Below, piece after piece: positions 14,270 through 50,392 of a stretch of DNA of 64,000 bases. Source of the DNA: an uncultured Actinomycetes bacterium (GTDB lineage: Bacteria > Actinomycetota > Thermoleophilia > UBA2241). Location of the stretch: NCBI GenBank assembly GCA_963799395.1, contig CAWCWZ010000060.1, forward strand, positions 3,321 to 67,320, read 5' to 3'. Under the pieces are notes generated by a model that saw only the letters and a list, made by a program, of their open reading frames with translations, ran no database searches and was not told the origin of the DNA. Made by a program: the position numbers and the translations under genes. The stretch's first letter is position 1; the number at the start of each line of letters is the position of its first letter.

Positions 14270-15669
14270 CAGCCCGTGCCGCCCACCGTCATGGCGGCGA
14301 TGCGCAGTGTGGCCTGGCCGGTGCCCACGGGTACGCTCTGGCCGTCCTTGCCACAGATGCCCGACTTCACCTCGAAGTCGGAGGCGATCATGTCGATGCT
14401 CTTGAGCACGTCGATGCCGTTGCCCACGAGCGTGGCGCCGCGCAGCGGCGCCGTGACGCGGCCGTGCTCGATGAGGTAGCCCTCGGCCACCCCGAAGACG
14501 AAGTTGCCGCTCGCCGGCTCGACCTGCCCGCCGGCCAGCGTCTTGGCGTAGAAACCGCGTTCGGTGGCGGCGATGATCTCGTCGGCGGTCGCCTCGCCGG
14601 GGGCGATGCAGGTGGTCGTCATGCGCGGGATGGGCACGTGACGGAACGACTGCCGGCGGCCGTTGCCCGTTTGGGCGACGCCTTCCTCGCGGGCCCGCAG
14701 GCCGTCGTAGAGAAAGCCGCGCAGGCGGCCGTCTTCGATCACGACGGTCTTCTGCGTGGGCGCGCCTTCGTCGTCGACCGCCGCCGAGCCCCACTCGCCG
14801 GCGATGCTGCCGTCGTCGTAGGCATTGACGATGGCCGAGGCCACGACGTCGCCGACCTTGTCCTCGTAGATGCTGGAACCCTTGGCGATGCCGTCGGCTT
14901 CGAGGCCGTGGCCGCAGGCTTCGTGGAACAGCGTGCCGCCGAAGCCGTTGCCCATGACCACCGCCATCGGACCGGTCGGCGCCGGGCGCGCGTCGAGCAT
15001 GGTGACGGCCTTGCCGGCGGCGGCGCGCGCCATGGCCTGGGCGATCTCCTCGTCTAAGATCTCGAAGCCCAGGCTCTTGCCGAGACTCTCGTAGCCGGTC
15101 TGGATGACGCCGTCGCGACGCGCCACGGCGCTCACCGTGAACCGCACCCGCGTACGGTCGTCGGTGACCAGGGCGCCCAGCGAGTTGGCGACCAGCAGCC
15201 GCTGACGGCTTTCGAGGTAGCCGGCGCTGACCTGGCTGACGGCGGGACTCGCGCCGCGGGCCGCCTCGTCGGCGGCCCGCAACAGCCCCGCCTTGACGTC
15301 GGTGGCCACCGAGGCGGGCGGCAGCGCCACGACGGCCGTGCCGGCCGCCTCGCGCAGGGCGCCGAGATCGACCACCTGGGCGCCTCCCGCGGCGCCGCGC
15401 AGCGCCGCCGAGACGGCGTCGGCGGCGCGCTGCAGGTCGGCTTCGGAGACGTCGTCGGAGTACGAGTAGTAGGTGCGGTCGCCGCTCGTGAGCCGCACCC
15501 CGAAGCCCGACTCGCGGCCGCCGGCCGCGCGCTCGACGCGCCGGTCCTCGAGCGAGAGTCCGAGCGAGCGGCGGTCTTCGACGTAGACCTCGGCGAAGTC
15601 GCCGCCGTGGCGCAGGGCGCGGCGGATGGTGGCGTCGAGCAGGTCAGCGGTGAGGTCGTCGAGCTGCAT
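14269..15669 (-). CDS. tldD: Metalloprotease TldD
   Basis: 466 aa ORF with TldD family homology along its length. It forms an operon with pmbA. Confidence 0.85.
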   Translation of the reverse strand: MQLDDLTADLLDATIRRALRHGGDFAEVYVEDRRSLGLSLEDRRVERAAGGRESGFGVRLTSGDRTYYSYSDDVSEADLQRAADAVSAALRGAAGGAQVVDLGALREAAGTAVVALPPASVATDVKAGLLRAADEAARGASPAVSQVSAGYLESRQRLLVANSLGALVTDDRTRVRFTVSAVARRDGVIQTGYESLGKSLGFEILDEEIAQAMARAAAGKAVTMLDARPAPTGPMAVVMGNGFGGTLFHEACGHGLEADGIAKGSSIYEDKVGDVVASAIVNAYDDGSIAGEWGSAAVDDEGAPTQKTVVIEDGRLRGFLYDGLRAREEGVAQTGNGRRQSFRHVPIPRMTTTCIAPGEATADEIIAATERGFYAKTLAGGQVEPASGNFVFGVAEGYLIEHGRVTAPLRGATLVGNGIDVLKSIDMIASDFEVKSGICGKDGQSVPVGTGQATLRIAAMTVGGTG

Positions 15670-17697: not shown

Positions 17698-18765
17698 ATG
17701 CGTACACTGACTCTCGGCGATCGCGGCAAAGAAGTCTCCGACGTGCAGCAGCGGTTGCACGGGCTCGGCTACGAGCTCGGCAACGAAGGTCTCGACGGCT
17801 TTCTCGGACCGCGCAGCCAGCTCGCCCTCAGGGCGTTCCAGCAGGAACGCGGGCTGCTCGTCGACGGCATCCTCGGACCCAACACCTGGCACGAGCTGGT
17901 CGAGGCCGGCTACGCGCTCGGCGACCGCCTGCTGTACCTGCGCGTCCCCTACTTTCGCGGCGACGACGTGCTGGCGCTGCAGGTCAAGCTCAACCTCCTG
18001 GGATTCAACGCCGGCCGCGAACGCGGCATCTTCGACACCGCGGTCGAGCGGGCCCTGATCGACTTTCAGCGCAATGCCGGTCTGCCGTCCGACGGCATCG
18101 TCGGCGACGACACCCTGCGCAAGCTCGACGCCCTGCGCAAGGCCGAATCGGGCCGCGAAGGCAAGAAGATCCCCGACCGCGACGAGGGCTTTGTCCACGA
18201 CACGAGCCTCGCCGGCACGGTCGTGCTCATCGACCCCGGCCACGGCGGCCAGGACGTCGGCGTGGTCTCGCCCTCGGGCCGCAAAGAGAAGGACCTGACG
18301 CTCGCCGCCGGCCTGCGTCTCGCCGAGATGTTGCGGGCCGAGGGCAGCCGGGTCGTCATGACCCGCGAGACCGACCAGACCGTGCCGCTCTACGTGCGCA
18401 CCGACGCCGCCGAGACGGCGGCCGCCGACTACGTCGTCTCGCTGCACTTCAACGGCCACCACAACCCCGCGGCGGCCGGCGCCGTGGGCTACTTCTTCCA
18501 GCGCAGCCACTACTACTCCGAACACGGGGCGCGCCTGTCCGACTACATCGGCGCCGAGATCGGCCGGCTCTCCAGCGCCGGCTTCGTCGGCAGCCTCGGG
18601 CGCAACTTCGCCGTGCTGCGCGAGCCGACCGGCATAGCGGTCATGCTCGAGCCGCTCTTTCTGACCAATCCCGCCGACGACGCCCGCGCCGGCCGCGCCG
18701 ACTACGTCGAGCTCCTCGCGCGGGCCGTGGTCGCCGGCTTCTCACGCTACCTGGCTCGCGCCTAG
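17698..18765 (+). CDS. N-acetylmuramoyl-L-alanine amidase (Amidase_3) with two PG_binding_1 domains
   Basis: Two peptidoglycan-binding repeats (LxxxGYxxGxxDGxFGxxTxxAVxxFQ) followed by an Amidase_3 catalytic domain (VLIDPGHGG...LHFN). Ends in TAG. Confidence 0.8.
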   Translation: MRTLTLGDRGKEVSDVQQRLHGLGYELGNEGLDGFLGPRSQLALRAFQQERGLLVDGILGPNTWHELVEAGYALGDRLLYLRVPYFRGDDVLALQVKLNLLGFNAGRERGIFDTAVERALIDFQRNAGLPSDGIVGDDTLRKLDALRKAESGREGKKIPDRDEGFVHDTSLAGTVVLIDPGHGGQDVGVVSPSGRKEKDLTLAAGLRLAEMLRAEGSRVVMTRETDQTVPLYVRTDAAETAAADYVVSLHFNGHHNPAAAGAVGYFFQRSHYYSEHGARLSDYIGAEIGRLSSAGFVGSLGRNFAVLREPTGIAVMLEPLFLTNPADDARAGRADYVELLARAVVAGFSRYLARA

Positions 18766-18777
18766 GGACGACGCGCC

Positions 18778-19638
18778 GTGAGCACCCCACCCGAACCGGC
18801 GTCGACGGCCGGCTTTACCGCGACCCAGCGACAGCGCCTGCACGAGCTGGGCGCCACCGCCGCGGCAAGCGACGAGACCTTCGCCGGCGCGGCCGCCCGC
18901 GACGCGGCCTTCCTGCTCCTCGAGACAGAGCTCGCCGGCGCCGGCCGGGCGGCGCTCGACGCCCTGCGCGCCGGTGCGCGCCTGCCAGCGCTGCGCCGTC
19001 TCGAGGAGTCCCTGCGCGCCGCCCTCACCGGGGCCGGTCTGGTCGAGGTCGTGACCCCGGCCATCGTCGGCGGCGACGCCCTGCGCAAGATGGGCGTCGA
19101 ACCCGGTAGCGAGATGGGCGAGCAGGTCTTTCGCCTCGACGGCGACCGCTGCCTGCGGCCGATGCTCGCCCCCAACCTCTACACGCTGCTGCGCCGCCTC
19201 GCGCGCATCTGGAAGCAGCCCTTCGCGATCTACGAGATCGGCTCGTGCTTCCGGCGCGACACGAAGGGCAGCCGGCACCTGAACGAATTCACCATGCTCA
19301 ACCTGGTCGAGCTCGGCACGCCGCTCGAGCGCCGCGACGAGCGTCTGCGCGAACTGGCCGCCGTCGTGCTCGCGGCCGCCGGCGTGACCGGCTACGAGTT
19401 CACGCGCAAGCGCTCCGAGGTCTACGGCGACGAGCTCGACGTGGTCGTCGGCGGCCTCGAAGTCTGTTCCACGGCGCTCGGACCGCACCCGTTAGACGAC
19501 GCCTGGGCGATCACCGACCCGTGGGTCGGTCTGGGCTTTGGTCTCGAGCGCCTGCTCGTCGCCCGCGACGGCCTGGCCGGTATAGAGCGCGTGGGGCGCA
19601 GCCTGCGGTACCTGGACGGGGTGCGCCTGCAGCTGTAG
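18778..19638 (+). CDS. pylSc: Pyrrolysyl-tRNA synthetase, C-terminal catalytic subunit (split PylS)
   Basis: Class II aaRS core with PylS-specific blocks (CLRPMLAPNLY, HLNEFTMLNL, DPWVGLGFGLERLL, SLRYLDGVRLQL). Closely resembles Desulfitobacterium PylSc. GTG start, TAG stop. Confidence 0.85.
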   Translation: MSTPPEPASTAGFTATQRQRLHELGATAAASDETFAGAAARDAAFLLLETELAGAGRAALDALRAGARLPALRRLEESLRAALTGAGLVEVVTPAIVGGDALRKMGVEPGSEMGEQVFRLDGDRCLRPMLAPNLYTLLRRLARIWKQPFAIYEIGSCFRRDTKGSRHLNEFTMLNLVELGTPLERRDERLRELAAVVLAAAGVTGYEFTRKRSEVYGDELDVVVGGLEVCSTALGPHPLDDAWAITDPWVGLGFGLERLLVARDGLAGIERVGRSLRYLDGVRLQL

Positions 19639-19687: not shown

Positions 19688-20329
19688 CTACCTGCCCAGC
19701 AGGGCGTCGATCTTCTTGACGCCGTCGGCGGCGTCTTCGGCGTAGGCGTCGGCGCCGATCTGGTCGGCCCAGCGCTGGGTGCAGGGGGCGCCGCCGACCA
19801 CCGTCTTGAAGGGCAGGCCCTCGGCGCGGATGGCGGCGATCACCTTCTTCTGCTCCTCCATGGTGGTGGTGAGCAGGGCGCTCATGCCGATGACGTCGGC
19901 CTGCTCTTCCTTGGCCCGGGCGATGAAGGTGGCGGCCGGCACGTCGCGGCCGCAGTCGGTGACGGCGTAGCCGTGGGCCTTTAAGTAGGCGATGACGATG
20001 GCCTTGCCGATGTCGTGGACGTCGCCCTGCACGGTGCCGACGATGACGGTGCCCTTCTTCTCGCCCTCGCCGCCCACCAGGGCGGCGTTGCAGACCCTCG
20101 TGGCGGCGTCCATCGCCTGGGCGGCCAGCATGAGCTCGGGCAGAAAGACCTCGCCCGACTCGAAGGCGTCGCCGATCTGGCTGATGCCGACGACAAAGCC
20201 CTGGTTGATGATCTCGCCGGGGGCCATGCCGGCAGCGAGGGCGCGCGTGGCGACGTCCTCGGCGGCGGCGGCGTCGAAGTTGACGATCGCAGCGATCGCC
20301 TCTTGGATGAGCTCGTCTTTGTTGGCCAT
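19688..20329 (-). CDS. Methyltransferase cognate corrinoid protein (MtmC/MtbC/MttC family)
   Basis: ATG at 20329 with GAGGAGG upstream. B12-binding DxHxxG motif (DVHDIGK) and an N-terminal cap helix domain typical of methylamine corrinoid proteins. Confidence 0.8.
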   Translation of the reverse strand: MANKDELIQEAIAAIVNFDAAAAEDVATRALAAGMAPGEIINQGFVVGISQIGDAFESGEVFLPELMLAAQAMDAATRVCNAALVGGEGEKKGTVIVGTVQGDVHDIGKAIVIAYLKAHGYAVTDCGRDVPAATFIARAKEEQADVIGMSALLTTTMEEQKKVIAAIRAEGLPFKTVVGGAPCTQRWADQIGADAYAEDAADGVKKIDALLGR

Positions 20330-20547: not shown

Positions 20548-21426
20548 ATGCGGTACTACGGCGCCGTCATCCGGCCCCCCAGCGAAGCCTCGAGCCTCAT
20601 CGTGCAGGTCACCTTCGGCTGCTCCAACGCCTCCTGCGACTTCTGCTCGACCTACCTCGACAAGCCCTTCGCGGTGCGGCCGCCCGACGAGGTCGTCGAA
20701 GACGTCACGGGCTTGCCCGACAGCATCAAGGCGCGGGTGCGGCGCGTCTTTCTCGCCGACGGCGACGCGCTCGCGCTGTCGCGCCGCCGGCTCGAGGACG
20801 TGCTCGCCCTCCTGCGCCGCGAGCTGCCCGCGCTCGAGCGGGTGAGCTGCTACGCGAGCGCCCAGAACCTGCTGAAGAAGAGCGCCGACGACCTGCACGC
20901 CATCCGCGAGGCCGGCCTCGAGATGCTCTACCTGGGCCTCGAGTCCGGCGACGACGCGACCCTCGCGGCCATCCACAAGGGAGTGACGGCGGCCGAGCAG
21001 ATCGAGGGTTGCTCCAGGGCGTCGGCGGCCGGCTTTGCCCTGTCGATCACGGCGATCCTCGGGCTGGCCGGCCCCGAGCGCTCGGCGCTGCACGCCACGG
21101 CCACCGGCGAGGCGCTGTCGGCCATCGATCCCCCGTACATCGGGGTGCTCAGCCTCATGGTCGAGCCCGGCACCCGCATCGCCGAGCAGGTGCGCAGCGG
21201 GGAGTTCGTCGTGCCCGACGCGCTCACCATGCTGGCCGAGCTGCGTGGCATGATCGCCGCCACGATCGTGACCGACGCCGTGTTCCGCTCCAACCACGCC
21301 TCGAACTACCTGCCGGTGGGCGGCCGCCTGCCCCACGACAAGGAAGCGATGCTGGCGGCCCTCGACGGCGTGCTGGCGGCGCCCGAGCGGGCTCGCCTCA
21401 AGCCCGAGGAGTGGCGCCTGCTCTAG
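20548..21426 (+). CDS. Radical SAM protein of unknown function
   Basis: N-terminal CSNASCDFC (CxxxCxxC) after RPPSEASSLIVQVTFG. 292 aa. Ends in TAG. Confidence 0.6.
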   Translation: MRYYGAVIRPPSEASSLIVQVTFGCSNASCDFCSTYLDKPFAVRPPDEVVEDVTGLPDSIKARVRRVFLADGDALALSRRRLEDVLALLRRELPALERVSCYASAQNLLKKSADDLHAIREAGLEMLYLGLESGDDATLAAIHKGVTAAEQIEGCSRASAAGFALSITAILGLAGPERSALHATATGEALSAIDPPYIGVLSLMVEPGTRIAEQVRSGEFVVPDALTMLAELRGMIAATIVTDAVFRSNHASNYLPVGGRLPHDKEAMLAALDGVLAAPERARLKPEEWRLL

Positions 21427-22089: not shown

Positions 22090-22431
22090 TCAGTCCCTCC
22101 GCTCGCCCTCGCGCAGGTACGAGCCGTAGCCGCGCTTGAACTTCGTGGCGGCGTACTTCTGCAGCTTCCACTCGGGGATGCGGCACTCGGGACAGGCCTC
22201 GAAGAACAGCTTGTTGCGCAGCCAGCGGGCCGAGCGGCTGTTCTTGGAGTCGCGCACGATCATGGTCTTGCCGCAGTGGGTGGTGAGGCGGGCCCGCGTG
22301 CCCAACACCTCGAACTCCTTGATGCCGTGCAGCAGCCCGCGCCGCGAGGGCCACAGCTTCATCTTCTCGACGAGCCTGAAGAGCGGCACCTGCTTGCGGT
22401 AGTAGACGGCCTTGTTGGGGTCGGTCGGCAC
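22090..22431 (-). CDS. pylSn: PylS N-terminal tRNA-Pyl-binding domain protein (split PylS)
   Basis: LWPSRRGLLHGIKEFEVLGTRARLTTHCGKTMIVRDSKNSRSARWLRNKLFFEACPECR aligns with the Methanosarcina PylS N-domain, including the zinc Cys/His ligands. Probable GTG start at 22431; an alternative ATG lies at 22362. The Arg-rich N-terminal 72 aa of the track ORF are rejected. Confidence 0.75.
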   Translation of the reverse strand: MPTDPNKAVYYRKQVPLFRLVEKMKLWPSRRGLLHGIKEFEVLGTRARLTTHCGKTMIVRDSKNSRSARWLRNKLFFEACPECRIPEWKLQKYAATKFKRGYGSYLREGERRD

Positions 22432-22550: not shown

Positions 22551-24335
22551 CTACGTGAAGGTGCGATAGAACGGCAGACCGTCGTAGACGGCCCGCGTGG
22601 CGCGCCCGTCGATGACCGTGTCGAACGACAGACGGTCGGGGAGCCACGAGGGCGCGCCGACACGAAAGTCGCCGCCGGACAGCGGCACGAGCTCGAGCTC
22701 GTCAGCCGGGTAGAGCCAGGGCGCCACCATCAACAGGCGATTACGCCGGCAGATGACGGAGAAGACGGGGGCCCAGGGGTCGTACGAACGGTAGGTGCCG
22801 GTGAGCCGCGCCCACGAGGGGTCGGGGGCGGGCGCCGCGAGCGGCGCCCGCCCCTCGCGCGCAAACCACGAGGGGCCGCAGGAAAGCGCGACGACGGCGC
22901 CGCCGTCGTCGCGCTCGAAGCGCAGGTGGAAGCGGTCCCAGTCGGGGTGGGGCGCGAGGAACAGGTCGTCGCCCCTGCGCTCCAGAGCGATCTCGGCGAC
23001 GGCCGACGGCTCGGCGCCGACGCCCGAGCCGACGCTCGCGGCCGGAGCGGCCGGCAGGCGCAGGAACAGACGCTCGTCGTGAGCGGCCAGCGTCAGACCG
23101 CTCCAGGCTGGTTCGTCGTCGCCCGAGCTCGATGGCTCGCCACCCGCCGCGGCGTCCCGGCGGGCGTCGCCGGAGGGCGGCGCGACGTAGACGCCGGCGC
23201 ACTCGGCGGCCGCCGCGCCGATGATCGTCGGGTCGGCGGGCGGCGCTGGCGGGGGCACAGGCGCCCCCGCCAGCGCCGCCCGCAGCGCCCGCAGCGCGAA
23301 GCGCGCGATCTCCATGCGGTCGTCGGACCCGTTCACCAGCACGATCACGCCGATACCGGACGCCGGGTCGGTCACGAGCAGGCTGCTGAAGCCGACCATG
23401 CCGCCTGAGTGACCGACGCACTCGTGCCCGTCGAGGGTCCGCGTGACGAGCCCGTACCCGTAGAACGAGCCCGGCTCGTCGGGGTCTTCGACCACCCTGC
23501 TCGTCCAGAGCGCGAAGCTCTCGTCGCTCAACAGGCGGCCGCCGGGACCCGCGCCGCGGTTCAGGATCAGTCGCGCCCAAGCCAGCATGTCGGCGGCCGA
23601 CGAGACGATGCTGCCATCGGCCGTACAGCTCTCGATGCGCGTGGCTTCGACGACCGGCCGGCCGCCGTGCGCCGGCCGGTCGCCGCAGAGCTGCTCGTAG
23701 CCGGTCGCGACGGGCAGAGGCGAGTCGCGCCTGATCGTCGTCTCGGAGTCGATCATGGCGAGCGGCGCCACGATGCGATCGGCCACGAGCGTCGCGACCG
23801 GGCGCCCGGTCACCGCCTCGAGAGCCAGGCCGACGAGCTTGTAGCCGTCGTTCGAGTAGAGGAAGTGTTCGCCCGGCCCGTAGGTCAGCTCGGTCTCGCG
23901 CAACGACCACAGCGCGCAGCGCGCTTCGGCGCTGAACTCGGTGCCCATGGGCAGCCCCGACGTGTGGCTGAGCAGGTGGTGCAGCGTGATCGGGGCAAAG
24001 CGCGAGCGCACCGAGAACCAGGGCACGTAGTCGGTCACCGGCGCGTGCAGATCGACGCGGCCGGCTTCGTGCTCCTGGAGGAGCACCGCGGCCGTGAACG
24101 ACTTGCTGATCGAGCCGATCTGAAAGCGCGTGTCGGGTTCGACCGGCGTGCCGGCCGCGACACTCGCGAGGCCCTGACAGACGAAGCCCAGCGTGCGCTC
24201 GCTGTCGGTCAGCCCGATCGCCACGCCCGGAGCAGCGAGCCGCGGCAGGCGCGCCGCGACGAACTCGTCGACGGCCCCGAGAGCGGTGATCAGATGGTCG
24301 TGCCGGCTTGAGTCGGTGAAGCTCACGCCGACCAT
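22551..24335 (-). CDS. Beta-lactamase-family serine hydrolase (class C / PBP4-like)
   Basis: SxxK motif (SISKSF), YSN motif (LYSNDGY) and HSGG motif in a 594 aa ORF. Confidence 0.7.
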   Translation of the reverse strand: MVGVSFTDSSRHDHLITALGAVDEFVAARLPRLAAPGVAIGLTDSERTLGFVCQGLASVAAGTPVEPDTRFQIGSISKSFTAAVLLQEHEAGRVDLHAPVTDYVPWFSVRSRFAPITLHHLLSHTSGLPMGTEFSAEARCALWSLRETELTYGPGEHFLYSNDGYKLVGLALEAVTGRPVATLVADRIVAPLAMIDSETTIRRDSPLPVATGYEQLCGDRPAHGGRPVVEATRIESCTADGSIVSSAADMLAWARLILNRGAGPGGRLLSDESFALWTSRVVEDPDEPGSFYGYGLVTRTLDGHECVGHSGGMVGFSSLLVTDPASGIGVIVLVNGSDDRMEIARFALRALRAALAGAPVPPPAPPADPTIIGAAAAECAGVYVAPPSGDARRDAAAGGEPSSSGDDEPAWSGLTLAAHDERLFLRLPAAPAASVGSGVGAEPSAVAEIALERRGDDLFLAPHPDWDRFHLRFERDDGGAVVALSCGPSWFAREGRAPLAAPAPDPSWARLTGTYRSYDPWAPVFSVICRRNRLLMVAPWLYPADELELVPLSGGDFRVGAPSWLPDRLSFDTVIDGRATRAVYDGLPFYRTFT

Positions 24336-24475
24336 TGTGTCAGAGTCGGCAGCCCCCGCGAAGTGGGCGAGTCGCCGACGCCTCTCGGACGCGGCCGTCT
24401 GCCGTTGGGCCTGAGAGCCGGCACACCCCCGCCTGCAGCTCCAGCAGGCGACCGCACACGGCAGGGGGATTGTGG

Positions 24476-24548
24476 TGGCGGGGAGTAGGGGAGTTACACC
24501 CCTCTACGCGGATTTAGAGTCCGCGCTGATCCTTCCGATCGACCCCCC
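24476..24548 (-). tRNA. pylT: tRNA-Pyl (amber suppressor, anticodon CUA)
   Basis: Minus-strand sequence GGGGGGTCGATCGGAAGGATCAGCGCGGACTCTAAATCCGCGTAGAGGGGTGTAACTCCCCTACTCCCCGCCA. 7-bp acceptor stem, 4-bp D-stem with a 5-nt loop, 6-bp anticodon stem, loop CUCUAAA, short variable loop, T-loop lacking TPsiC, discriminator G and encoded CCA. Nearly identical in architecture to Desulfitobacterium tRNA-Pyl. Confidence 0.85.
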
Positions 24549-24625
24549 GCGCCGACTCCAAGGCTAGCGCATCCGGACCGTGCGGCCAAGCATCCGCGGG
24601 GCGTGGCGCACCGGCCGCGGGCTTG

Positions 24626-24940
24626 TCAGGCTGCAGCGACGTCGGACCGCGGCAGAGCCGCGACGATCTGCTTCGCCTCCTCCAGGCCGAATGCCTTGAG
24701 CGACGTCGTGCGGACCGTCCCGCCCGCGCTCAGCGCGAGCGCGAACGCCGCCGCCGCCTTGTCGTCGGGGCCTTCTCCGATGGCCACATAGTCGAAGTCG
24801 CCCATGGTCATGTACATGTCGAGCACCTTGCCGCCCATCGACTCCCAGAGCTTGATGCCGTCAGAGATGCGGTCCGGCGAGTGCTTGACGTCGGCGATGC
24901 CCTTGTCGGTCAGTTTCATGAGCAAGATGTAGGTCACCAT
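24626..24940 (-). CDS. GYD domain protein
   Basis: 104 aa. ATG at 24940 with GAGGAGG upstream. GYD family signature (MGDFDYVAI...PDD). The track fuses it to pylD only because the pylD frame reads through. Confidence 0.7.
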   Translation of the reverse strand: MVTYILLMKLTDKGIADVKHSPDRISDGIKLWESMGGKVLDMYMTMGDFDYVAIGEGPDDKAAAAFALALSAGGTVRTTSLKAFGLEEAKQIVAALPRSDVAAA

Positions 24941-25043
24941 ACGCCCGCCCTCCTCGTGAACGACACAACTGAAGACCAGCCGACCGATGCGCCAGACCGC
25001 AGAGCGTAGCACCGGCCAACGGCGGCCGAGGACGAACCGTGGA

Positions 25044-25897
25044 TCAGCCGACCAGCGCCCGCACGGCCATGACGGCGACGCCGAGGGCGAGCGGCTCGTG
25101 CACGAGCCGCTCGCCCAGCGCCCGGGCGGCCGCGGCCGTGACGCCGGGCGGCAGGCCCGGTGAGCAGACGATGCCGTCGGCGCCCGCCCAGTCGGCGTCG
25201 ATGAGATCGGGTGTCGGCGTGGCGTCGAGCACGAGCCGGCAGCGCCCTGAGGCCGGCGGCTAGGGTGACCGGCGTGACCGGCAGCGCGCCGGCCACCGCG
25301 GCGAGACGGTCCTGGTCGAGCTCGCAGACCAGCACGTCGGCGCCAAGCTCGACGAGGCGCGGCGGCCGCCGCCCGACCGACCGGGCCGAGGCCGATCACC
25401 AGGACCGGTTTGCCGGCGACGCCGCCCCGGCCGGCAGCGGCGTCGGGAGCGGCGTCCCTCCCGGCAGCGGCGTCGAGGGCCGCGACGTAGGCGTGCGCCG
25501 TACACGGGTCGTCGTCGGCCACCGCGCGGCGAGCGAAGTCGAAGGCCAGGAACCCGCGGTCGTCGGCGGCGAAGACCAGATCGTCGTCGCCGGCGAGCGC
25601 CTCGGCGAAGCCGCCGACGTCGGTCGCCTCGGTCACGCGCACGGCGCGGCAGCCCAGATGGCAGCAGATCGCCGCCACGCAGTCGGTGAAGCCCGGGATC
25701 AGGCCCTCGCCGCTCGTGATCGGCACGACGGCGACGGCGGCGTGGGCGAGGGCGTCGCGAGCGACGCCCTCGCCCACGCCGCAGGCCCGCGCGGCGAGCG
25801 TCGCGAAGTCGCAGCCGGTGAGCGCTGCGAGCGCCCGCTCGACCTCGTCGAGATGCGCGGTCAGAGAGCGGACGTCGCCTTCGACGAGACGTGTCAC
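25044..25897 (-). pseudogene. pylD: pylD (3-methylornithyl-N6-L-lysine dehydrogenase) disrupted by two +/-1 frameshifts
   Basis: The N-terminal 170 aa (VAVVPITSGEGLIPGF...VLVIGLGPVG), the middle segment (VLVCELDQDRLAAVAGALPVTPV) and the C-terminus (LVLDATPTPDLIDADWAGADGIV...) each match PylD. They lie in three different frames, in track ORFs 24626-25897, 24934-25335 and 25044-25232. The ATG overlaps the pylC stop. Confidence 0.75.
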
Positions 25898-27196
25898 GGG
25901 GCGCCCTCGCCACGGTCCGACGCCGGCCCGGGCTGAGACTCGGGCACGAGCTCGAGACCGTGCTCGTCGGCGAGGCGCGTGACGGTGGCGGCGGCCCGCG
26001 CGCGGGCCGCCACCGCCGTCGCCCCGCGCGTCATCAGCACCGCGACCCAGCGGCCCCGCGAGGCGCCGCTCTCGGGGCGGTCGGTGAGCACCACGTCGGC
26101 GCCGTACAGGCCGTCGCAGCGGCGCAGGGGGCCGGCGCCGCCGACGATGTGCTCGCCGAGCACCTCGACCCTGCCGTCTTCGACCAGCACGTGCTCGTAG
26201 ACGGCGCCACGCCGGGCCCCGATAGCCACGGCCGGCGGCCGCTCGGCGGCGAAGGTCTCGGCGAGCAGCGCGACGATGTTCGCGTCGCTTGCGTGGTACA
26301 CGGCGGCGGGCGTCTGGCTGGGCAGGCGAGCGTCGATCTCGATCACTTTGGGCGTGCCGTCGGCGGCAACCATGACTTCGACGTCCATCACGCCGGCGAG
26401 GCCCACGCCCTCGGCCAGGCGCCGGGCGGTGGCGTCGAGCGCGGCCAGCGTCGCGGCGCTCACCGTCGCGGGCGACGACGCGCCGCCGGCCTCAGCGCCG
26501 CCGGATTGCCGCGACCCGCCGCCCGCCTCGCCGCCGGCGCCGCCGGTCGCCGCGCCGCCGGCGCCGTCGACCGGCGCGACCACGCGCTTGCAGTCGTAGG
26601 CCGCGTCGAACTCGAGGAAGGTCGGCAGGAGCGTCAGAGCCTCGCCGCCGAGCGCGATCACCTCGACCGACAGCGACGGTCCGGCCACGAACTCCTCGAC
26701 CACCGCCTCGGCGCCGTGAGCGGCGAGGGCGGCGCGCGCCAGCGCCAGGCCGGGTTCCGACCGCACGAGCTGAACGCCCGTGCTGCCGCTGCCGACGCTG
26801 GGCTTGACCACCGCCGGAAAGCCGCAGCGCGGCCAGGGCCGCGGACGCGGCACGTCGAGCCGCTCGAACAGCGCGTTGGAGCGCAGCTTCGACCGCGTCA
26901 CCGCATAGGCGCCCAGGTCGAAGAGCAGCGGCAGGCCCATCATCGGCACGAACGAGGTGAGGAACTCGAGGGCGCGGTCGTCCTCGCAGGCCGGCAGCAC
27001 GGCGTCGCACGACAGCAGCACCTCGCGGGCACGCGCCGGATCGGCGACGACGTCGAAGACGTGGACCTCGGTGGCCAGGCCGACCGCCGGACGGTCGGGC
27101 CGGCGGTCGATCAGCACCGACGTCGTAGCCGGCCTCGCCGGCCAGATAGGCGGCCTCGGTGCCCTGCAGCTTGCCGCCGACGACGGCCAGCCTCAT
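25894..27196 (-). pseudogene. pylC: pylC (3-methylornithine--L-lysine ligase, ATP-grasp) with one frameshift near the 5' end
   Basis: The N-terminal 26 aa MRLAVVGGKLQGTEAAYLAGEAGYDV are in track ORF 26492-27196. The remainder, with the PylC-typical MDVE...VIEIDARLPSQTP, is in ORF 25894-27117. Confidence 0.75.
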
Positions 27197-27241: not shown

Positions 27242-28337
27242 TCATGCCGGCGCCGGCTGGTCGACCGGGGCCCGGCGGGCCGCGGCCCGGCGCTCGCGGG
27301 CGGCGGCGACCCAGTCCGCATACTCGCCCGGGGTGGCGACGCGCAGCCCCAGCGCCCGGAGCCGGGCGGCGACCTCGGTGGCCGTGCGCAGGCCTTCGTC
27401 GATGTCGAGCTCCGACTGCGACACGCCGGCCAGGCCGGTGTCGGGCGGCACGATCGAGGTGACGACGTTGGCTCCGGCGGCGATGCGCGACTCGAGCCCG
27501 GCGATGCCGTCGACGTCGAGCGAGGCGGGGATCAGACGGTCGGGCATGGCGAGGCGCATGGTGGCGATCGTGACGAGCTCGCCGAGGCGGCCGGCCGGCG
27601 TGAGGTCGGCGAGCGGCGTGCCGCGCTGCGGCACGAAGGTCATGACGCGCACCTGATCGAGCGGTTCGTCCCGCATGGCGGCGACCGTGAGCGCGCGCTC
27701 GGCGACCGTCTCCCCCACGCCCAGCAGCATGCCGTCCTCGACCAGCATGCCCAGGGCGGCCGCGTCGCGCCGCGCCTGCAGGCGTTCGTCGAACTCCTGT
27801 CCGGTGCGTAGCCGCGAGTAGAGCTCGCGGGCGTGGGTCTCCTGGTAGCAGGCGTACCACTCCGCGCCGATGTCGCGCAGCGCCCCCAGCACGCCGGGCG
27901 TGACGACGCCGGGCGACACCATCACCGGCAGGCTCGGTGGCCGCCTTCACGGCGGCCACGAGCTCGACGAGGGCGTCGAACTCGCCGCTTGCGTAGTAGA
28001 GGGGGTCCTCGCCCATGGTCAGGTCGATCAGATGCACGCCCGATGCGGCGAGGCCGGCGCTGATCGCGACCACCTCGTCGAGCGACTTGCGATAGCGGGG
28101 GCTCTCGGCGTTGCCGCGGCGGTACAGGCAGAACGTGCAGCCGTTGCGGCACCAGGTCGAGAAGTAGACGAAGCCGTAGAGGAACACCGCGTCGCCGAAC
28201 CGGCGGCGGCGCAGCTCGGCCGCGGCGGCGAACAGCCCCGCCGCGGCGGCCGGATCGTCGATCGAGAGCAGGGTCTCGATCTCGCCGGCCGAGGGCGTCT
28301 CGCCGGCGAGCGCCCGCGCGAGGATGCCGTCGACCAC
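27242..28337 (-). pseudogene. pylB: pylB (methylornithine synthase, radical SAM) with one frameshift
   Basis: The N-terminal part, with YGFVYFSTWCRNGCTFC and LTMGEDPLYY, is in track ORF 27228-28337. The C-terminal part (MVSPGVV...YACYQETH...RLIPASLDVDGIAG...GANVVTSIVPPD) is in ORF 27242-27925. The junction near 27930 is a 1-nt indel. Confidence 0.75.
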
Positions 28338-29257: not shown

Positions 29258-29767
29258 TCAGGCCTGGACGGCCACCGTCTTGTCGGCCTTGTCGACCTTG
29301 AGGTCGATCGCCAGGACGTACGGGTTCTGACAGAAGGCGATGCACTGCGGGTCGCCGTCGCACAGGTCGCACTTGTAGGCGACCTTGCGCTCGGGGTGCT
29401 CGTGGATGACGCCGTACGGACAGACGTCGTAGCAGTCGCCGCAGTTCGTGCACTTGTCCTCGTCGACCGACCAGCACGACGCCCTTGACCGACTCGCCGA
29501 CCTTCTCCGTGCTGGCGAACGTGCGCCTGACGGGCGTGACCGTGATCGCGCGCGTCACGATCGCGTCGTCGGGACACGCCTCCTGGCACTTCGCGCAGGC
29601 GGTCTGCAGGCAGGTGTGGCCCTTGATCACGGCCGTGGTCGGGTTGCACGTCGGCGAACAAACGGACACGCGACGGCCGGTAAGCCGCCTTCGTGGTACG
29701 CCGAGCACGCCGAGCTCGCACATGTGGCAGCCGGTGCACTTCTTGCTGTGATCATGACGTGTGGCAT
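29258..29767 (-). pseudogene. Four-cluster [4Fe-4S] polyferredoxin (AorA/HycB-like), at least 2 frameshifts
   Basis: ATG at 29767 (MPHVMIT), 32 nt after the AOR stop, with GGAG upstream. Cys motifs CTGCHMC, CLQTACAKCQEACP, CTNCGDCYDVCP and CDLCDGDPQCIAFC are spread over three reading frames. The last two lie in a frame I translated by hand, ending at TGA around 29258. Confidence 0.55.
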
Positions 29768-29799
29768 GACTGGCTCCCTGTCCTTGTCGGTGCCACCGC

Positions 29800-31642
29800 C
29801 TAGAGCCGCACGTCGACGCCGAGCTCGGTGAGCTTCGCCTCGGTGGGCACACCGTTCGCGTCCCAGCCGCGCAGCTCGTAGTACTGCGCCGCAGGGACTC
29901 GCCGCAGGTGCGCTTCGCCGATGACCTTGCCGGCGGACGGGCCCTGGTGTGGGCGAACTTCTCGCTGCAGGCTTCTTGGGCACGCGGTCGTCGGCTTCGA
30001 CGCCCTCGCGCAGGTTGAACAGGCGCCCGAGGTTCCAGACTCGCTCGCCCATGAGCATGACCTCGTCTTCGGGACAGCTCGCGCTCCAGAGGTGCGTCAT
30101 GCAGCTGCGAGATCTGCTCGTGGTCGACCGCCCAGAAGTCGCACCAGATGCCGCAGAACTTGATCGAGCTGAAGTTCTGGCTGAGAAGTCGAGCGGCCGG
30201 TTGCCGATGGCGCCCTCGACCTTGCCCTCCATGGTGGCCGCCGGCATGGCGCCCTCGACGATCTCGTCGCCCACCGGGTACGTGCGCATGTGGCAGCCGC
30301 CGCGGTCGGAGGTGGCGTAGCGATGCTCATGCCGAACGAGCCGCGCGGGTCGTAGCCGGGCAGTCTCGAGGTTCTTGACCTGCATGGCGAGCTCGGGCGC
30401 GTCCGTACTTCTCGGCGAGAGCTGCGCACGCCCAGCGCGAGCTCGGCGCCGACGCCCTGCGCTTGCGGCGAGCTGCCCGGGCGACCTTGAGTACGCGTCG
30501 GCCTCGCCGAAGCGCACGCCGAAGTCGTGGATGCCCTTCTCGGTCATGTCCATGGCAAGCCCGATCACGGCGCCCGAGGAGATCGTGTCGAGGCCCCACT
30601 CGTCGCACTCCTCGTTGAACTTCATGAGAGCGTCGATGTCGTCGATGCCGCAGTTCGCGCCGCACAGGGCGATGGTCTCGTACTCGGGACCCTCGCCCAT
30701 GACCTTCTCGTCGTGCCAGGTGACAGCGTGCACGTTGCGGCAGGCGATGGCGCACTGGTAGCAGGCGCGCTTCTTGATGCGGATCTTCTGGAACGACTCC
30801 GAGTTCAGGTTCTTGGCGCCCTCGAAGTAGCCCTCGGACCAGTTCCTGGTGGGCATGGCGCCGGCGCCGTTGACCAGGTCGACGAGAATCGGCGTGCCCT
30901 CTTCGTGGGCCCAGAGGTTGTCGTCGGTCAGGACGAACTCGCTGTGCGATGCGCGCCATGTCGGCGAGAAAGGCCTTGGCGTCGCCGACCGTCACGCTGC
31001 CGGTGCCGCGGACGGCGATGGCCTTGAGGTTCTTGGAGCCCATCAGGGCGCCGTGACCGCCACGACCGGCCTTGTGGTACTGATCGGTCGACAGGCAGGC
31101 CCAGGGGATGAGCGTCTCGCCGGCCGGGCCGATCGACAGGGTCTTGGCCTCGGGGTCGAAGTCGTCGCGCAGGGCCTGCTCGATCTCAGAGGTCTTCATG
31201 CCCCAGTACCTGGGCCTGGCGGGCACGACTCGACGACGTCGTCGCGGATGGTGACGACCGTCGGTTCGGCGGCCTTGCCGAGGACGATGATCGCATCGTA
31301 GCCGGCGAACTTCATCTCGGGAGCGAACGAGCCGCCCACGTAGCTGTCGTTCAGGATGCCGGTGGTCGGACTCTTGGCGCCGACGACCAGTCGCGACGTG
31401 GTCGACACGTTGGTGCCGGCGAACGGTCCGGTCATGAGGAACAGCGGGTTCTCGGGCGCCCAGGGGTCGACCAGGGGCGGCACGTACTCCCACATGTAGC
31501 GAAACAGGAGCCCCTTGCCGCCCACGTACAGTGCGGCCCACTCCATGTTGAGAGGCTCGACCTTCGTGGTCTTCGCGCTCATGTCGATCGTGAGCACGTT
31601 GCCCTTGTAGAAGTCCACGTGGCCCTCCCTCTGGGTTGTCAC
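29800..31642 (-). pseudogene. Tungsten-type aldehyde:ferredoxin oxidoreductase (AOR family), at least 6 frameshifts
   Basis: AOR-homologous segments occur in alternating frames. These are the N-terminus (track ORF 31196-31642), the GRGGHGALMGSKNLKAIAV block (ORF 30327-31892), and the middle and C-terminal parts (ORF 29627-30856: PTRNWSEGYFEGA, ACYQCAIAC, GPEYETIALCGANCGIDD, YATSDRGGCHMR, GERVWNLGRLFNLREG). The last 45 aa (YYELRGWDANGVPTEAKLTELGVDVRL) and a TAG stop are in a third frame. Junk segments lie between the homologous blocks. Confidence 0.75.
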
Positions 31643-31837
31643 GGCTCCGCTCTTCCAGGGAGCGATGTGCCAAGGACGGCACGACCGCAGCCCGAAACGA
31701 GTCGGTTAGTGCACCCATTCTAGACAAGCGGAGCGCCGCGGGCAATCGTCCGGGGGGCCACAAAACCCCAGCTCCTATTCGAGAAACCGTTGCCCGCGCG
31801 CGAGGATAACGGGGTAGGTCGGCGGAGGGTCTGTCGG

Positions 31838-46734: not shown

Positions 46735-48627
46735 TCAGGTCGGACTGCCGGGGCGGGCGCCCACGGCGGCGACCTCGTCGCCCGTCAGGCGCTGCACGGC
46801 GCCGAACTTACAGACCTGGCGGCAGGTGTCGCACTTCGTACAAAGTGTGGTGTCGATCGCGTGGGCCTGCTTGCGCTCGCCGCCGACGGCGCCGACCGGA
46901 CACTTCTTGACGCACAGCGTGCAGCCCGTGCAGGTCTCGGGATCGATGCTGTAGGTGATGAGCGCGATGCAGGCCCGCGCCGGGCAGGCGGCGTCGTAGA
47001 TGTGGGCCTCGTACTCGTCGCGGAAGTAGCGGATGGTCGTGAGCACGGGGTTGGGTGCCGTCTGGCCCAGCCCGCAGAGGCTGGTGCGCTTGATCGTCTC
47101 GGCGAGCTTCTGCAGGCGTTCGATGTCGCCGTCCTCGCCTTGGCCGGCCGTGATGCGCTCGAGGATCTCGAGCATGCGCTTGGTGCCCAGGCGGCAGGGA
47201 ACGCACTTGCCGCAGCTCTCGTTCTGGGTGAACTGCAAGAAGTAGCGCGCGAGGTCGACCATGCAGGTCTGGTCGTCGGCGACGACCATGCCGCCCGAGC
47301 CCATGATCGCGCCGGTGGCGGCCAGGCTCTCGTAGTCGATCGGCGTGTCGATCAGCGCCGCCGGCACGCAGCCGCCCGAGGGGCCACCGAGCTGCACCGC
47401 CTTGAACTCGCGGCCGCCCTTGATGCCGCCGCCGACGCCGTAGACCATCTCCCTGATGGTCGAGCCGATCGGCACCTCGGCGAGGCCGCCGTTGACCACC
47501 TTGCCGGCCAGCGAGAAGGCCTTGGTGCCGCGGCTCTTCTCGGTGCCCAGCGCGGCGTAGGCGGCCGCGCCGTTGGTGATGATCCAGGGGATGTTGGCGT
47601 AGGTCTCGACGTTGTTGATGTTGGTGGGCTTGCTCCAGAGGCCCGACACCGCCGGGAACGGCGGCCGCGAGCGCGGCATGCCGCGACGGCCCTCGATGCT
47701 CGCCATCAGGGCCGTCTCCTCGCCGCAGACGAAGGCGCCGGCGCCCTCCTTGATCTTCACATGGAAGCTCCGGTCGGAGCCGAACACCCCGTCGCCGAGG
47801 AAGCCGCGCTCTTCGGCCTGGGCGATCGCCAGGCGCAGGCGCTTGACCGCCAGGGGATACTCGGCGCGCACGTAGATGTAGCCGTCGCGGGCGCCGATCG
47901 CATACGAGCCGATGATCATGCCCTCGATCACCGCGTGCGGGTCGCCGTCCATGATCGAAGCGTCCATGAAGGCGCCGGGGTCGCCCTCATCGCCGTTGCA
48001 GATGAGGTACTTCTGGTCGCTCTGCGAGGCGGCCGCGAACTTCCACTTCTGGCCGGTCGGAAAGCCGGCGCCGCCGCGGCCGCGGATGCCCGAGGCGAGG
48101 ACCTCGTCGACGACCCACTCGGGCGTCTTCTCGGTGACGACGGTGCGGGCGGCGGCGTAGCCGCCGCGTGCGACGTACTCCTCGATGCGCTCGGGGTGGA
48201 TGATGCCGACGTCGCGCAGCGCGATGCGCGTCTGCTGGGCGTAGAAGGGGATGTCGTGCCAGCAGGCGATGCGCTCGCCGCTGCCCGGCTCGATGTAGAG
48301 GAGGTCTTCGACGATGGCGCCGCCGACGAGGTGTTCCTCGACGATGCGCTTGACGTGCTTGGCCTTGAGCTTGGGGTAGTAGGTCTCCTCGCCCGAGATG
48401 ACCGCGAGCGGCCCCTGCGAGCAGAGGCCGTGACAGCCGATGATGGCGACCTCGACCTCGTCGGCCAGACCGGCCGCGGCGATCTCCTCTTCGAAGGCCG
48501 CGAACATCTTGAGCGAGCCGGCGAAGACGCAGGCCGTGCCGGCGCAGACCTGCACGCGGCGCTTGCCGTTCGCGGCCGGCACGACACCGACGCGCACGCC
48601 GCCGGCGGCGGCCATCTCGTCACTCAT
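46735..48627 (-). CDS. NuoF-like NAD(H)-binding flavoprotein with N-terminal thioredoxin-like [2Fe-2S] and C-terminal 2x[4Fe-4S] domains (HydB / FdhB type)
   Basis: FMN/NADH-binding motifs (GRGGAGFPTG, ICNGDEGDPGAF), the SLBB domain, an ESCGKCVPCR 4Fe-4S motif and a C-terminal ferredoxin domain (CTGCTLCVKKCP, CTKCDTCRQVC). Confidence 0.8.
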   Translation of the reverse strand: MSDEMAAAGGVRVGVVPAANGKRRVQVCAGTACVFAGSLKMFAAFEEEIAAAGLADEVEVAIIGCHGLCSQGPLAVISGEETYYPKLKAKHVKRIVEEHLVGGAIVEDLLYIEPGSGERIACWHDIPFYAQQTRIALRDVGIIHPERIEEYVARGGYAAARTVVTEKTPEWVVDEVLASGIRGRGGAGFPTGQKWKFAAASQSDQKYLICNGDEGDPGAFMDASIMDGDPHAVIEGMIIGSYAIGARDGYIYVRAEYPLAVKRLRLAIAQAEERGFLGDGVFGSDRSFHVKIKEGAGAFVCGEETALMASIEGRRGMPRSRPPFPAVSGLWSKPTNINNVETYANIPWIITNGAAAYAALGTEKSRGTKAFSLAGKVVNGGLAEVPIGSTIREMVYGVGGGIKGGREFKAVQLGGPSGGCVPAALIDTPIDYESLAATGAIMGSGGMVVADDQTCMVDLARYFLQFTQNESCGKCVPCRLGTKRMLEILERITAGQGEDGDIERLQKLAETIKRTSLCGLGQTAPNPVLTTIRYFRDEYEAHIYDAACPARACIALITYSIDPETCTGCTLCVKKCPVGAVGGERKQAHAIDTTLCTKCDTCRQVCKFGAVQRLTGDEVAAVGARPGSPT

Positions 48628-49228
48628 GGCCGCCGTCCTTTGCCGAGCCGCTCGCCCCGGGGTGTGCGTCCCCGGGCCCGGCCGTGGCGCCCCTCAGGTC
48701 GTCGGCCGTGAGGCCGAGGCCGCCGAGCACCTCGAGGATGTACTTGCGGGTCGCGTCGGGCGTGAGGTTGCCAAAGGTCTCGGCGTCGATGCGCATGACC
48801 GGCGCCTGGGAGCAGGCCCCCATGCAGGCCACCGAGCCGAGCGTGAAGCTCATGTCCGGCGTGGTGCCGCCGTCGGGCACGCCGAGCTCCTGCTCGAGGG
48901 CCTCGGTGATCCGCGGCGCGCCGGCCACGTGACAGGCGGTGCCGTGGCAGACGAAGACCCTGTGACGGCCGCTGGGCTCGGTCGAGAACTGGGCGTAGAA
49001 GGTGACGATGCCGTAGATGCGTGAGGCGGGCACGCCCGACAGCCGGGCGATCTCGTCGACGACCGGTTCGGGCAGATAGCCGTAGTGAGCCTGCACATGC
49101 TGCAGCACGGCGATGAGGTTGCCGTTCGGGTCGATCTCGCCGACGACCCGGCCGACCTCGGACAGGTCGAGATCGAGAGCAGACGCCGCGGGATCGGCCT
49201 GGGGGGTGTCTTTTGCGCGCCTGGGCAT
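48620..49228 (-). CDS. NuoE-like [2Fe-2S] thioredoxin-like subunit
   Basis: CHGTAC...CMGAC 2Fe-2S motif. Start taken at MPRRAKD; the alternatives MMER at 49276/49279 are possible. It overlaps the downstream NuoF-like gene start. Confidence 0.7.
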   Translation of the reverse strand: MPRRAKDTPQADPAASALDLDLSEVGRVVGEIDPNGNLIAVLQHVQAHYGYLPEPVVDEIARLSGVPASRIYGIVTFYAQFSTEPSGRHRVFVCHGTACHVAGAPRITEALEQELGVPDGGTTPDMSFTLGSVACMGACSQAPVMRIDAETFGNLTPDATRKYILEVLGGLGLTADDLRGATAGPGDAHPGASGSAKDGGHE

Positions 49229-49454
49229 CGCATCACTCCGCTTCGTCACCACGAACGGCCCACGGGGGCGTTCCATCATCAACGTCGGCTGCGTGTCTGC
49301 TCGAGCCGGTCGCCGCGCGTCGGCATCGCGGCCCGAGACCCGGACGACCGCTCGACCCATTGTCGCGCCTCGGCGGCGGGGCGCGCAACCGCGAGCCCCG
49401 GCGGCGGGGCGCGCCACCGCGCGCCACCGCCGACGGCCGCGAGCGGCTCGCGCC

Positions 49455-50336
49455 TCAGGCCGCCCCGGTCTGCGCCTTGCAGGCCGCCAGGGCGTTCTTC
49501 AGGAGGATCACATTGGTCACCGGGCCGACCCCGCCGGGCACCGGGGTGACCTTCGAGGCCACCTCGCAGACGCCGTCGAACTCGAGGCTGCCGACCTGCT
49601 TGCCGTCGATGCGGATGGTGGTGACGTCGACGACGATCGCGCCCGGCTTGACCATGTCCTTCTTGATCAGGTTCTGCACCGGCGCGGCGCAGATGAGCAC
49701 GTCGGCCTCGCGGCAGGCGGCGGGCACGTCCTTGCTGAACACGTGGACGACGTGCACGGTCGCGTTCTTGTTCAGGCACAGCAGGGCGGCCGGCTTGCCG
49801 ACGATGTTCGAGTGGTTGACGATCGTGACGTTGAGGCCCCGGTCCTTGCCCTCGTCGTCGACGTACATCAGGTCGACGCCTTCTCGCGCGAGGATCTCCA
49901 TGCAGGCCGACGGCGTGGCCGGCGCGAACAGAAAGTCGCCGAGCAGCACATGACCGATGTTGGCCGGGTTCACGCAGTCGAGGTCCTTTACCTGTGCGAT
50001 GGCGTTGAAGACGGCGTTCTGGTCGATCTCGCCGGCCATCGGCATGAGGGCCAGGATGCCGTGCACGGCCGGGTCGGCGTTGAGCCCGGCGATGAGGTCG
50101 AGGACCTCGGCCTGGCTCGTACCGGCCGGCAGCGTGTGGTTGAAGTAGTTGAAGCCGACCGTGCCGGTGTTCTTCTCGATCTGACCGCGGTAGAACTGCG
50201 CGCCGCCGTCGTCGCCGACGAGGATGGTCGCGACGCCCGGCTTGACGCCCCGGGCGGCGAGCTTCTCGACCTCGGCGACGATCTCGGCGCGCACCTGCTC
50301 GGCGATCGCCTTGCCGTCGATGATCTGCGCTGTCAT
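49455..50336 (-). CDS. folD: Bifunctional methylene-THF dehydrogenase / methenyl-THF cyclohydrolase
   Basis: MTAQIIDGKAIAEQ... FolD fold with the cyclohydrolase and NAD(P) motifs. Real start about 100 codons inside the track ORF, +/-1 nt. Confidence 0.85.
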   Translation of the reverse strand: MTAQIIDGKAIAEQVRAEIVAEVEKLAARGVKPGVATILVGDDGGAQFYRGQIEKNTGTVGFNYFNHTLPAGTSQAEVLDLIAGLNADPAVHGILALMPMAGEIDQNAVFNAIAQVKDLDCVNPANIGHVLLGDFLFAPATPSACMEILAREGVDLMYVDDEGKDRGLNVTIVNHSNIVGKPAALLCLNKNATVHVVHVFSKDVPAACREADVLICAAPVQNLIKKDMVKPGAIVVDVTTIRIDGKQVGSLEFDGVCEVASKVTPVPGGVGPVTNVILLKNALAACKAQTGAA

Positions 50337-50392
50337 CTTGAGTCCAGTCCTTTGTTCGCTTGCCTTCGCGCGACGGGCCGCCGCGCGCTGCT

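Follow-up and report, generated by a model that had tools for sequence, protein, structure and literature searches.

A tRNA-Pyl gene downstream of pylD in the split-PylRS pyrrolysine locus of an uncultured Thermoleophilia bacterium

The stretch of DNA analysed here (64 kb, 70% G+C; hereafter referred to as the window) belongs to an uncultured soil bacterium of the Thermoleophilia (Actinomycetota). It carries a complete set of the genes pylSc, pylSn, pylB, pylC and pylD, all five of which pass the NCBIfam equivalog cut-offs, and a gene for tRNA-Pyl, pylT, which is genomically linked to all of them, within 6 kb. The features of the locus are the following:

18778-19638, plus strand: pylSc, catalytic PylRS subunit, 286 aa (TIGR02367, 287.5 bits; cut-off 178.15)
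19688-20329, minus strand: methyltransferase-type corrinoid protein, 213 aa (TIGR02370, 210.6 bits, just under the cut-off of 215.3)
20548-21426, plus strand: radical SAM protein, 292 aa (Pfam PF04055; weak NCBIfam matches)
22090-22431, minus strand: pylSn, tRNA-binding small PylRS subunit, 113 aa (TIGR03912, 125.1 bits; cut-off 51.15)
22551-24335, minus strand: serine hydrolase / beta-lactamase-family gene, 594 aa, between pylT and pylSn (NCBIfam)
24463-24469, minus strand: pyrimidine tract UCCCCCU, 7-13 nt past the CCA end of pylT
24476-24548, minus strand: pylT, tRNA-Pyl gene with anticodon CUA, 73 nt, CCA encoded, discriminator G (ARAGORN, fold, covariance model, covariation)
24561-24566, minus strand: putative -10 hexamer TAGCCT, 12 nt upstream of the mature 5' end (conservation)
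24584-24589, minus strand: putative -35 hexamer TTGGCC, separated by 17 nt from the -10 hexamer (read from the sequence)
24626-24940, minus strand: gene for a GYD-domain protein, 104 aa, between pylD and pylT (Pfam PF08734, 89.7 bits)
25044-25897, minus strand: pylD, read across two +1 frame changes (reconstructed protein, TIGR03911, 169.7 bits; cut-off 150)
25894-27117, minus strand: pylC, intact, 407 aa (TIGR03909, 266.5 bits; cut-off 248.3)
27242-28337, minus strand: pylB, read across one frame change (reconstructed protein, TIGR03910, 435.5 bits; cut-off 348.2)

The PylRS is split, with the TIGR03912 and TIGR02367 domains encoded by separate genes on opposite strands, and a public protein, P0001, is 100% identical to the PylSc of the window. 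Between pylSc and pylSn lie the genes for the corrinoid protein, which scores 203 bits against the MtbC model (cut-off 350), for the radical SAM protein, whose weak NCBIfam matches cover only the C-terminal half of radical SAM enzymes that bind B12 (HpnJ, PhpK-like), and for a GrpB-like protein. The GYD gene is shared with two of the loci compared below, L028 and L001, the latter a conspecific contig with about 98% nucleotide identity to the window, and is missing from most relatives. The serine hydrolase gene matches the D-aminopeptidase, AmpH and class C beta-lactamase models of NCBIfam, all below cut-off, and is variable cargo outside the Pyl system.

A tRNA-Pyl with anticodon CTA was called by ARAGORN at 24476-24548 on the minus strand, as one of two tRNA genes in the window. 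The same 73-nt gene had been proposed, with no strand given, in an earlier note made on this DNA, and its coordinates were found to be exact. The RNA sequence is GGGGGGUCGAUCGGAAGGAUCAGCGCGGACUCUAAAUCCGCGUAGAGGGGUGUAACUCCCCUACUCCCCGCCA. An independent tRNA-Pyl covariance model, constructed from 21 other bacterial sequences with the window and its nearest relatives left out, matched pylT end to end (94.1 bits, E = 2e-19) and gave no second match in the whole 64 kb. The general tRNA model of Rfam did not detect pylT, even at E-values up to 10, and does detect a tRNA-Gly at 60878-60950 of the window; its failure on pylT fits the atypical architecture of tRNA-Pyl. General tRNA models are known to miss tRNA-Pyl, so that this negative result is no argument against the call. 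The sole Rfam match over pylT was a weak one to a tymovirus tRNA-like element (16.7 bits against a gathering score of 40). The cloverleaf is the minimum-free-energy fold of the RNA (-35 kcal/mol, z = -3.4 against shuffles) and was equalled by only one of 200 shuffles. The tRNA-Pyl-specific covariance model and the folding, which the earlier note had suggested among its checks, both came out in favour of a tRNA-Pyl.

The acceptor stem of pylT (GGGGGGU/ACUCCCC, with a G5:U wobble) is joined to the D stem by a single base, C8, a junction that occupies one column in all 23 aligned sequences. The D arm consists of a 4-bp stem and a 5-nt loop, GGAAG, which on reading of the sequence starts with GG; the CUA anticodon stands in a 7-nt loop, CUCUAAA, with both U33 and A37 present; and the T loop, UGUAACU, is without the T54-Psi55-C56 motif. 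The discriminator G73 and the G1:C72 pair, both invariant in the alignment of bacterial tRNA-Pyl, are present as well. The CUCUAAA loop, the 5-nt D loop, the absence of TPsiC, the discriminator G and the encoded CCA, which had been named earlier as the hallmarks of the gene, were all recovered. The resemblance of its acceptor and discriminator region to that of Desulfitobacterium hafniense, which had been offered as further support, is uninformative, as ACUCCCC-G-CCA is nearly invariant in the 23 bacterial tRNA-Pyl sequences, a set of which D. hafniense is not a member. The elements through which the D. hafniense PylRS is reported, by Herring et al. 2007, to recognise its tRNA (G73, G1:C72, U33, A37 and a G:C pair in the T stem) can all be found in the pylT sequence.

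Covariation was examined on 23 distinct, aligned tRNA-Pyl sequences from bacteria, in which 98.1% of the cloverleaf cells form standard pairs and nine cloverleaf pairs show changes on both sides. The observed covariation score was reached by none of 500 shuffles, and the signal collapses when the partners are slid by one to three columns. The sole difference between pylT and its genus-level relatives lies in the anticodon stem, where C:G stands in place of U:A, a compensatory change. The gene at 24476-24548 is a genuine tRNA-Pyl.

The anticodon stem comprises six Watson-Crick pairs and G23:U43, with a variable region of 2 nt, which becomes 3 nt when the seventh pair is open. The earlier note had combined a 6-bp anticodon stem with just one base between this stem and the D stem, a combination that 73 nt do not allow: the stem is either of 7 bp, with A22 as the single linker base, or of 6 bp, with two bases before it. 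All the Thermoleophilia-type copies of tRNA-Pyl (14 distinct sequences, that of the window among them) are 73 nt long, and the copies from Bacillota, Eubacteriales, Aminicenantes and Dehalococcoidales are mostly 72 nt long; in the alignment, the 73-nt copies owe their length to an additional nucleotide, A22, that follows the D stem. The pair equivalent to G23/U43 is GU in nine, GC in six and AU in three of the aligned sequences, and this covariation favours the longer stem. The likeliest structure for the Thermoleophilia clade would have a 7-bp anticodon stem, A22 as the one linker base and a 2-nt variable region. A22 is no sequencing artefact, being found also in contigs of unrelated studies (for example L022, L036 and L044, the names of which suggest short-read assemblies). 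Both A22 and the 7-bp stem sit in the core that is read by the PylSn domain, and the tRNA-Pyl variant of this clade is a natural experiment that could interest engineers of orthogonal PylRS/tRNA pairs.

Among the known systems, those of D. hafniense and Desulfosporosinus have the same parts as the window (pylT, pylSc, pylSn, pylB, pylC and pylD) and share the one-base junction between acceptor and D stems, the 5-nt D loop, the CUCUAAA loop, the long anticodon stem, the short variable region, the lack of T-Psi-C, G73 and the G-rich acceptor stem. In Desulfosporosinus and the other bacteria of the set compared, D. hafniense not being among them, the 3' end ACUCCCC-G-CCA is identical or one base off. 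The window tRNA differs in being 73 and not 72 nt long, with the extra A between the D and anticodon stems, and in having a Watson-Crick or wobble pair at the position equivalent to 26:44; the gene order also differs, being pylT-Sc-B-C-D-Sn in D. hafniense and Desulfosporosinus, whereas in the window pylT follows pylD and pylSc is on the opposite strand at a distance of about 5 kb. The archaeal tRNA-Pyl of Methanosarcina has the same compact architecture as that of the window but a different acceptor-stem sequence. Unlike in the window, PylSn is there fused to PylSc and pylT leads the operon pylTSBCD. The anticodon-arm core of the window tRNA, GGACUCUAAAUCC, is identical to what we take to be that of Methanosarcina barkeri, and this string recurs in the literature on genetic-code expansion.

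To place the locus among its relatives, the pyl genes and tRNA-Pyl were mapped on 87 loci, plus L040. A total of 583 pylSc relatives were confirmed in the genome scan, and most of the best 80 are from Thermoleophilia. The relatives of the PylSc of the window derive from long-read soil metagenome assemblies and are labelled in GenBank as uncultured Actinomycetes or Thermoleophilia MAGs. About 37 of the mapped loci share one plan, which is defined in the present analysis as the Thermoleophilia-type pyl locus: pylSc(+), corrinoid gene(-), radical SAM gene(+), pylSn(-), a variable gene, pylT(-), pylD(-), pylC(-) and pylB(-). The gene order of the window matches this plan exactly. The variable gene between pylT and pylSn is the hydrolase gene in the window, a sulfate-permease gene in L002 and L004, and a convergent lipoprotein gene in most of the other loci of this type. 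In L006, L007 and L015, no gene intervenes and pylT stands 150 nt upstream of pylSn. Physical linkage of tRNA-Pyl to pylS and pylBCD was observed in about 45 loci altogether. In a further 11 Thermoleophilia loci (L008, L017, L018, L020, L023, L050, L056, L057, L060, L061 and L063), pylSc, the corrinoid gene, the radical SAM gene and pylSn are kept and pylT and pylBCD were not found within the flanks examined; in these genomes, they have been lost or have another location.

A different, colinear order, Sc-Cor-B-C-D-T-Sn, was observed in seven loci (L065, L066, L069, L074, L079, L080 and L083) belonging to Eubacteriales, Aminicenantes, Dehalococcoidales and unclassified MAGs, of which L080 gave no match for pylD. 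As in the relatives of the window, pylT comes directly after pylD in these clusters, and there it also directly precedes pylSn. They differ in having all genes on one strand and no radical SAM gene, in a tRNA of 71-75 nt without A22, and in showing no -10-like element of the Thermoleophilia type upstream of pylT. The textbook order T-Sc-B-C-D-Sn was found in only three of the mapped loci (L081, L082 and L085, from Bacillota and Desulfosporosinus).

Bacterial pyl genes are generally arranged as pylTScBCDSn or pylSnScBCD (Borrel 2014, PMC3941956), and in the literature searched only two Actinobacteria with PylRS were recorded (Guo 2022, PMC9630628). In the classical operon pylT stands at the head, upstream of pylSc; in the window, pylSc lies 4.8 kb from pylT on the opposite strand. 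The earlier note had regarded the placement of pylT as atypical, and it does depart from the published orders (PMC3941956); the same placement is nevertheless the rule in the approximately 37 Thermoleophilia loci and occurs in the colinear clusters of three other phyla. Thus, pylT after pylD is off the published stereotype, yet is the lineage norm in the Thermoleophilia. The separation of pylT from both pylS halves, which had also been pointed out, holds in the window, where the hydrolase gene lies between pylT and pylSn, but does not extend to the three loci with pylT 150 nt from pylSn. The ancestral layout, inherited in the class, is one with pylT after pylD and just before pylSn, and in the present genome the GYD gene and the serine hydrolase gene would have been inserted on either side of pylT. 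A single tRNA-Pyl is one more member of a well-understood family and alone changes little; the survey indicates that the Pyl machinery is widespread in Thermoleophilia, that the pylT-first order is one among several and that bacteria known from metagenomes commonly have pylT between pylD and pylSn.

In established pyrrolysine systems, PylB, PylC and PylD make the amino acid from two lysines, and PylSc charges tRNA-Pyl with the help of PylSn. The gene at 24476-24548 is very probably the functional tRNA gene of such a system with a split PylRS (pylSn + pylSc) in this uncultured Thermoleophilia bacterium. The tRNA would be transcribed mainly from its own sigma-70-type promoter, which conservation places in the 77-nt gap after the GYD gene, with a 5' leader of only a few nucleotides that RNase P would trim, the CCA being already encoded. 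PylB, PylC and PylD would supply pyrrolysine, PylSc, aided by the tRNA-binding PylSn, would charge the tRNA, and the charged tRNA would read UAG in client genes outside the window. For the present system, promoter use, charging and UAG decoding are inferred.

With respect to transcription, pylT had been placed in the earlier note at the 3' end of a pylBCD-GYD transcription unit. It does lie downstream of these genes on the same strand, as stated there; its membership in their transcription unit is doubtful, as a conserved -10-like hexamer indicates a dedicated promoter. Of 33 distinct upstream regions from Thermoleophilia, 31 have a TANNNT hexamer whose end is 8-12 nt from the tRNA; at positions drawn at random from these loci, the frequency is 0.9%. 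Its variants include TACAAT, TAGAAT, TAGGAT and TAGCCT, and the sequence around it is otherwise not conserved. The hexamer stays with the tRNA whatever lies upstream, be it pylD, the GYD gene or, in L002, a MarR-ferredoxin-methyltransferase insert. At the place of the -35 hexamer, close relatives have TTTGTC or TTTGCC. A strict scan for the Escherichia coli consensus promoter called no site in 24300-25000. In view of the -10-like hexamer conserved at a fixed distance from the tRNA, pylT probably has a dedicated promoter of its own.

The other possibility, that pylT lacks a promoter and is instead processed out of the 3' end of a polycistronic pylB-pylC-pylD-GYD transcript, is considered rather unlikely. 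It draws on the position of pylT on the same strand, 77 nt past the stop codon of the GYD gene, on a gap of just about 30-60 nt between pylD and pylT in the non-actinobacterial colinear clusters, and on the lack of any terminator-like structure between the GYD gene and pylT, the fold of the 92 nt upstream of pylT being less stable than its shuffles (z = +1.97). It leaves unaccounted for a TANNNT hexamer that keeps its 8-12 nt from the tRNA in nearly all the Thermoleophilia loci behind any upstream gene, and read-through from upstream could take place alongside a dedicated promoter, so that the two readings are not exclusive.

On the downstream side, the fold of 140 nt shows no structure beyond shuffles (z = 0.22), and by scan and folds a terminator-like structure is not evident on either side of pylT. 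A pyrimidine tract spanning +6 to +11 after the CCA is conserved across the Thermoleophilia loci; in 33 distinct loci, positions +7 to +9 are 97-100% pyrimidine, with T at about 0.4 against a background of 0.15. This tract may be a termination or processing signal. A sub-threshold Rfam match to the Streptomyces sRNA Scr4115 (24 bits against a gathering score of 58) falls at 24370-24459 (minus strand), where a spacer separates pylT from the hydrolase gene; it is probably due to chance, as the fold there is no better than that of shuffles.

The reading of pylT as a functional gene has also to be set against the state of its neighbours. As assembled, and relative to L001, pylD carries extra bases near 25245 and 25361 and pylB an extra T at 27934. 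At least seven single-base frame disruptions, most of them extra bases relative to L001, occur in 24.6-31.7 kb: two in pylD, one in pylB, one in a nitroreductase gene (about 28750) and several in an aldehyde ferredoxin oxidoreductase gene (29627-31705). The 15 kb left of this segment and the 5 kb right of it showed no such disruption. The conspecific L001 has different lesions: its pylC is split, its TldD/PmbA gene is broken and a 203-bp deletion (15535-15597, corresponding to 24302-24504 of the window) removes the 3' 29 nt of pylT. The deletion joins tRNA-Pyl position 44 to about codon 12 of the serine hydrolase gene, with loss of the T arm and the 3' acceptor strand; no homology is seen at its junction, and no other tRNA-Pyl is present within 10 kb on either side.

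The clustering of the disruptions between clean flanks, the extra bases of which several fall outside homopolymers, the split pylC and truncated pylT of L001 and the lack of a Pyl client gene in the window are what a Pyl system decaying in this species would leave behind, with real frameshifts in pylB and pylD and an intact but idle pylT. Such decay is nonetheless improbable. Past the frameshifts, the window and L001 differ by 11 synonymous changes and one non-synonymous change, and pN/pS between the two is below 0.45 for every pyl gene; since the substitutions past the frameshifts are almost all synonymous, the original frames are still under purifying selection. At the corresponding positions of L001, pylB and pylD are unbroken, and the compensatory substitution in the tRNA preserves pairing. 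The long-read source assemblies also break housekeeping genes, namely TldD/PmbA in L001 and the decarboxylase and PmbA genes in L006. Judged from these comparisons, the frameshifts are very probably long-read assembly errors.

That pylT is not a tRNA-Pyl but an amber-suppressor derivative of another isoacceptor, a tRNA-like element or the remnant of an integration site, as the Rfam miss, the weak tymovirus match and the varying cargo on its 3' side among relatives might suggest, is scarcely credible and effectively refuted by the presence of every structural hallmark of tRNA-Pyl, the 94 bits on the Pyl-specific covariance model, the roughly 45 loci in which tRNA-Pyl is linked to pylS and pylBCD, and the absence of any integrase or repeat signature. 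In a related vein, the variation in 3' cargo and the deletion in L001 led to pylT being considered as an integration hotspot, and the idea was dropped, as no integrase, repeat or junction homology was seen.

If pylT is the functional gene that it appears to be, its UAG-decoding clients are to be expected elsewhere in the genome, outside the window. No convincing gene with an in-frame TAG was detected in the 64 kb, where only antisense-frame artefacts and adjacent-gene cases were encountered, and no homologues of MttB, MtbB or MtmB were present among the 39 scanned ORFs. The window shows no sign of TAG avoidance: the 41 predicted genes end in TAG (14), TGA (26) or TAA (1), the TAG-ended ones including those for PylSc, the corrinoid protein, the radical SAM protein and the hydrolase. 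As TAG ends 14 of the 41 genes, pylSc among them, UAG decoding must be limited or conditional, as is the case in other Pyl-decoding bacteria.

The corrinoid and radical SAM genes are divergently transcribed and lie invariably between pylSc and pylSn in about 40 Thermoleophilia loci, the radical SAM gene being kept between the corrinoid gene and pylSn throughout the class. The two proteins may act jointly as a B12-dependent radical SAM enzyme in split form. A wider and more speculative reading, which we hold to be doubtful, is that the Thermoleophilia, a class of soil Actinomycetota that is abundant and for the most part uncultured, carry a vertically inherited sub-class of Pyl systems, marked by a 73-nt tRNA that has an added nucleotide at the junction and an anticodon stem of 7 bp, by a promoter dedicated to pylT and by a stand-alone corrinoid protein and a radical SAM enzyme as invariant partners. 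Under this reading, the radical SAM enzyme would resemble the C-terminal half of B12-binding enzymes without the B12 domain, and the pair occupies a place that could otherwise belong to a methylamine methyltransferase. If true, such a sub-class could point to undescribed pyrrolysine-dependent or pyrrolysine-associated methyl-transfer chemistry in soil and could provide a naturally distinct PylRS/tRNA pair for genetic-code expansion.

Farther along the window, at 46735-52935, lies a cluster of one-carbon and redox genes encoding NuoF-like and NuoE-like proteins, FolD, a protein with the C-terminal domain of formiminotransferase-cyclodeaminase and formate-tetrahydrofolate ligase, a gene content compatible with methyl-group metabolism via tetrahydrofolate. 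At the other end of the locus, pylSc is preceded by a peptidoglycan amidase gene with TAG as its stop codon (18763-18780) and starts 12-18 nt farther on in the same frame, as is also the case in L001 and L006; UAG read-through at this stop would, on the reading frames, fuse the amidase and PylSc. In L002 and L004, the amidase and pylSc genes instead overlap by GTGA and are in different frames.
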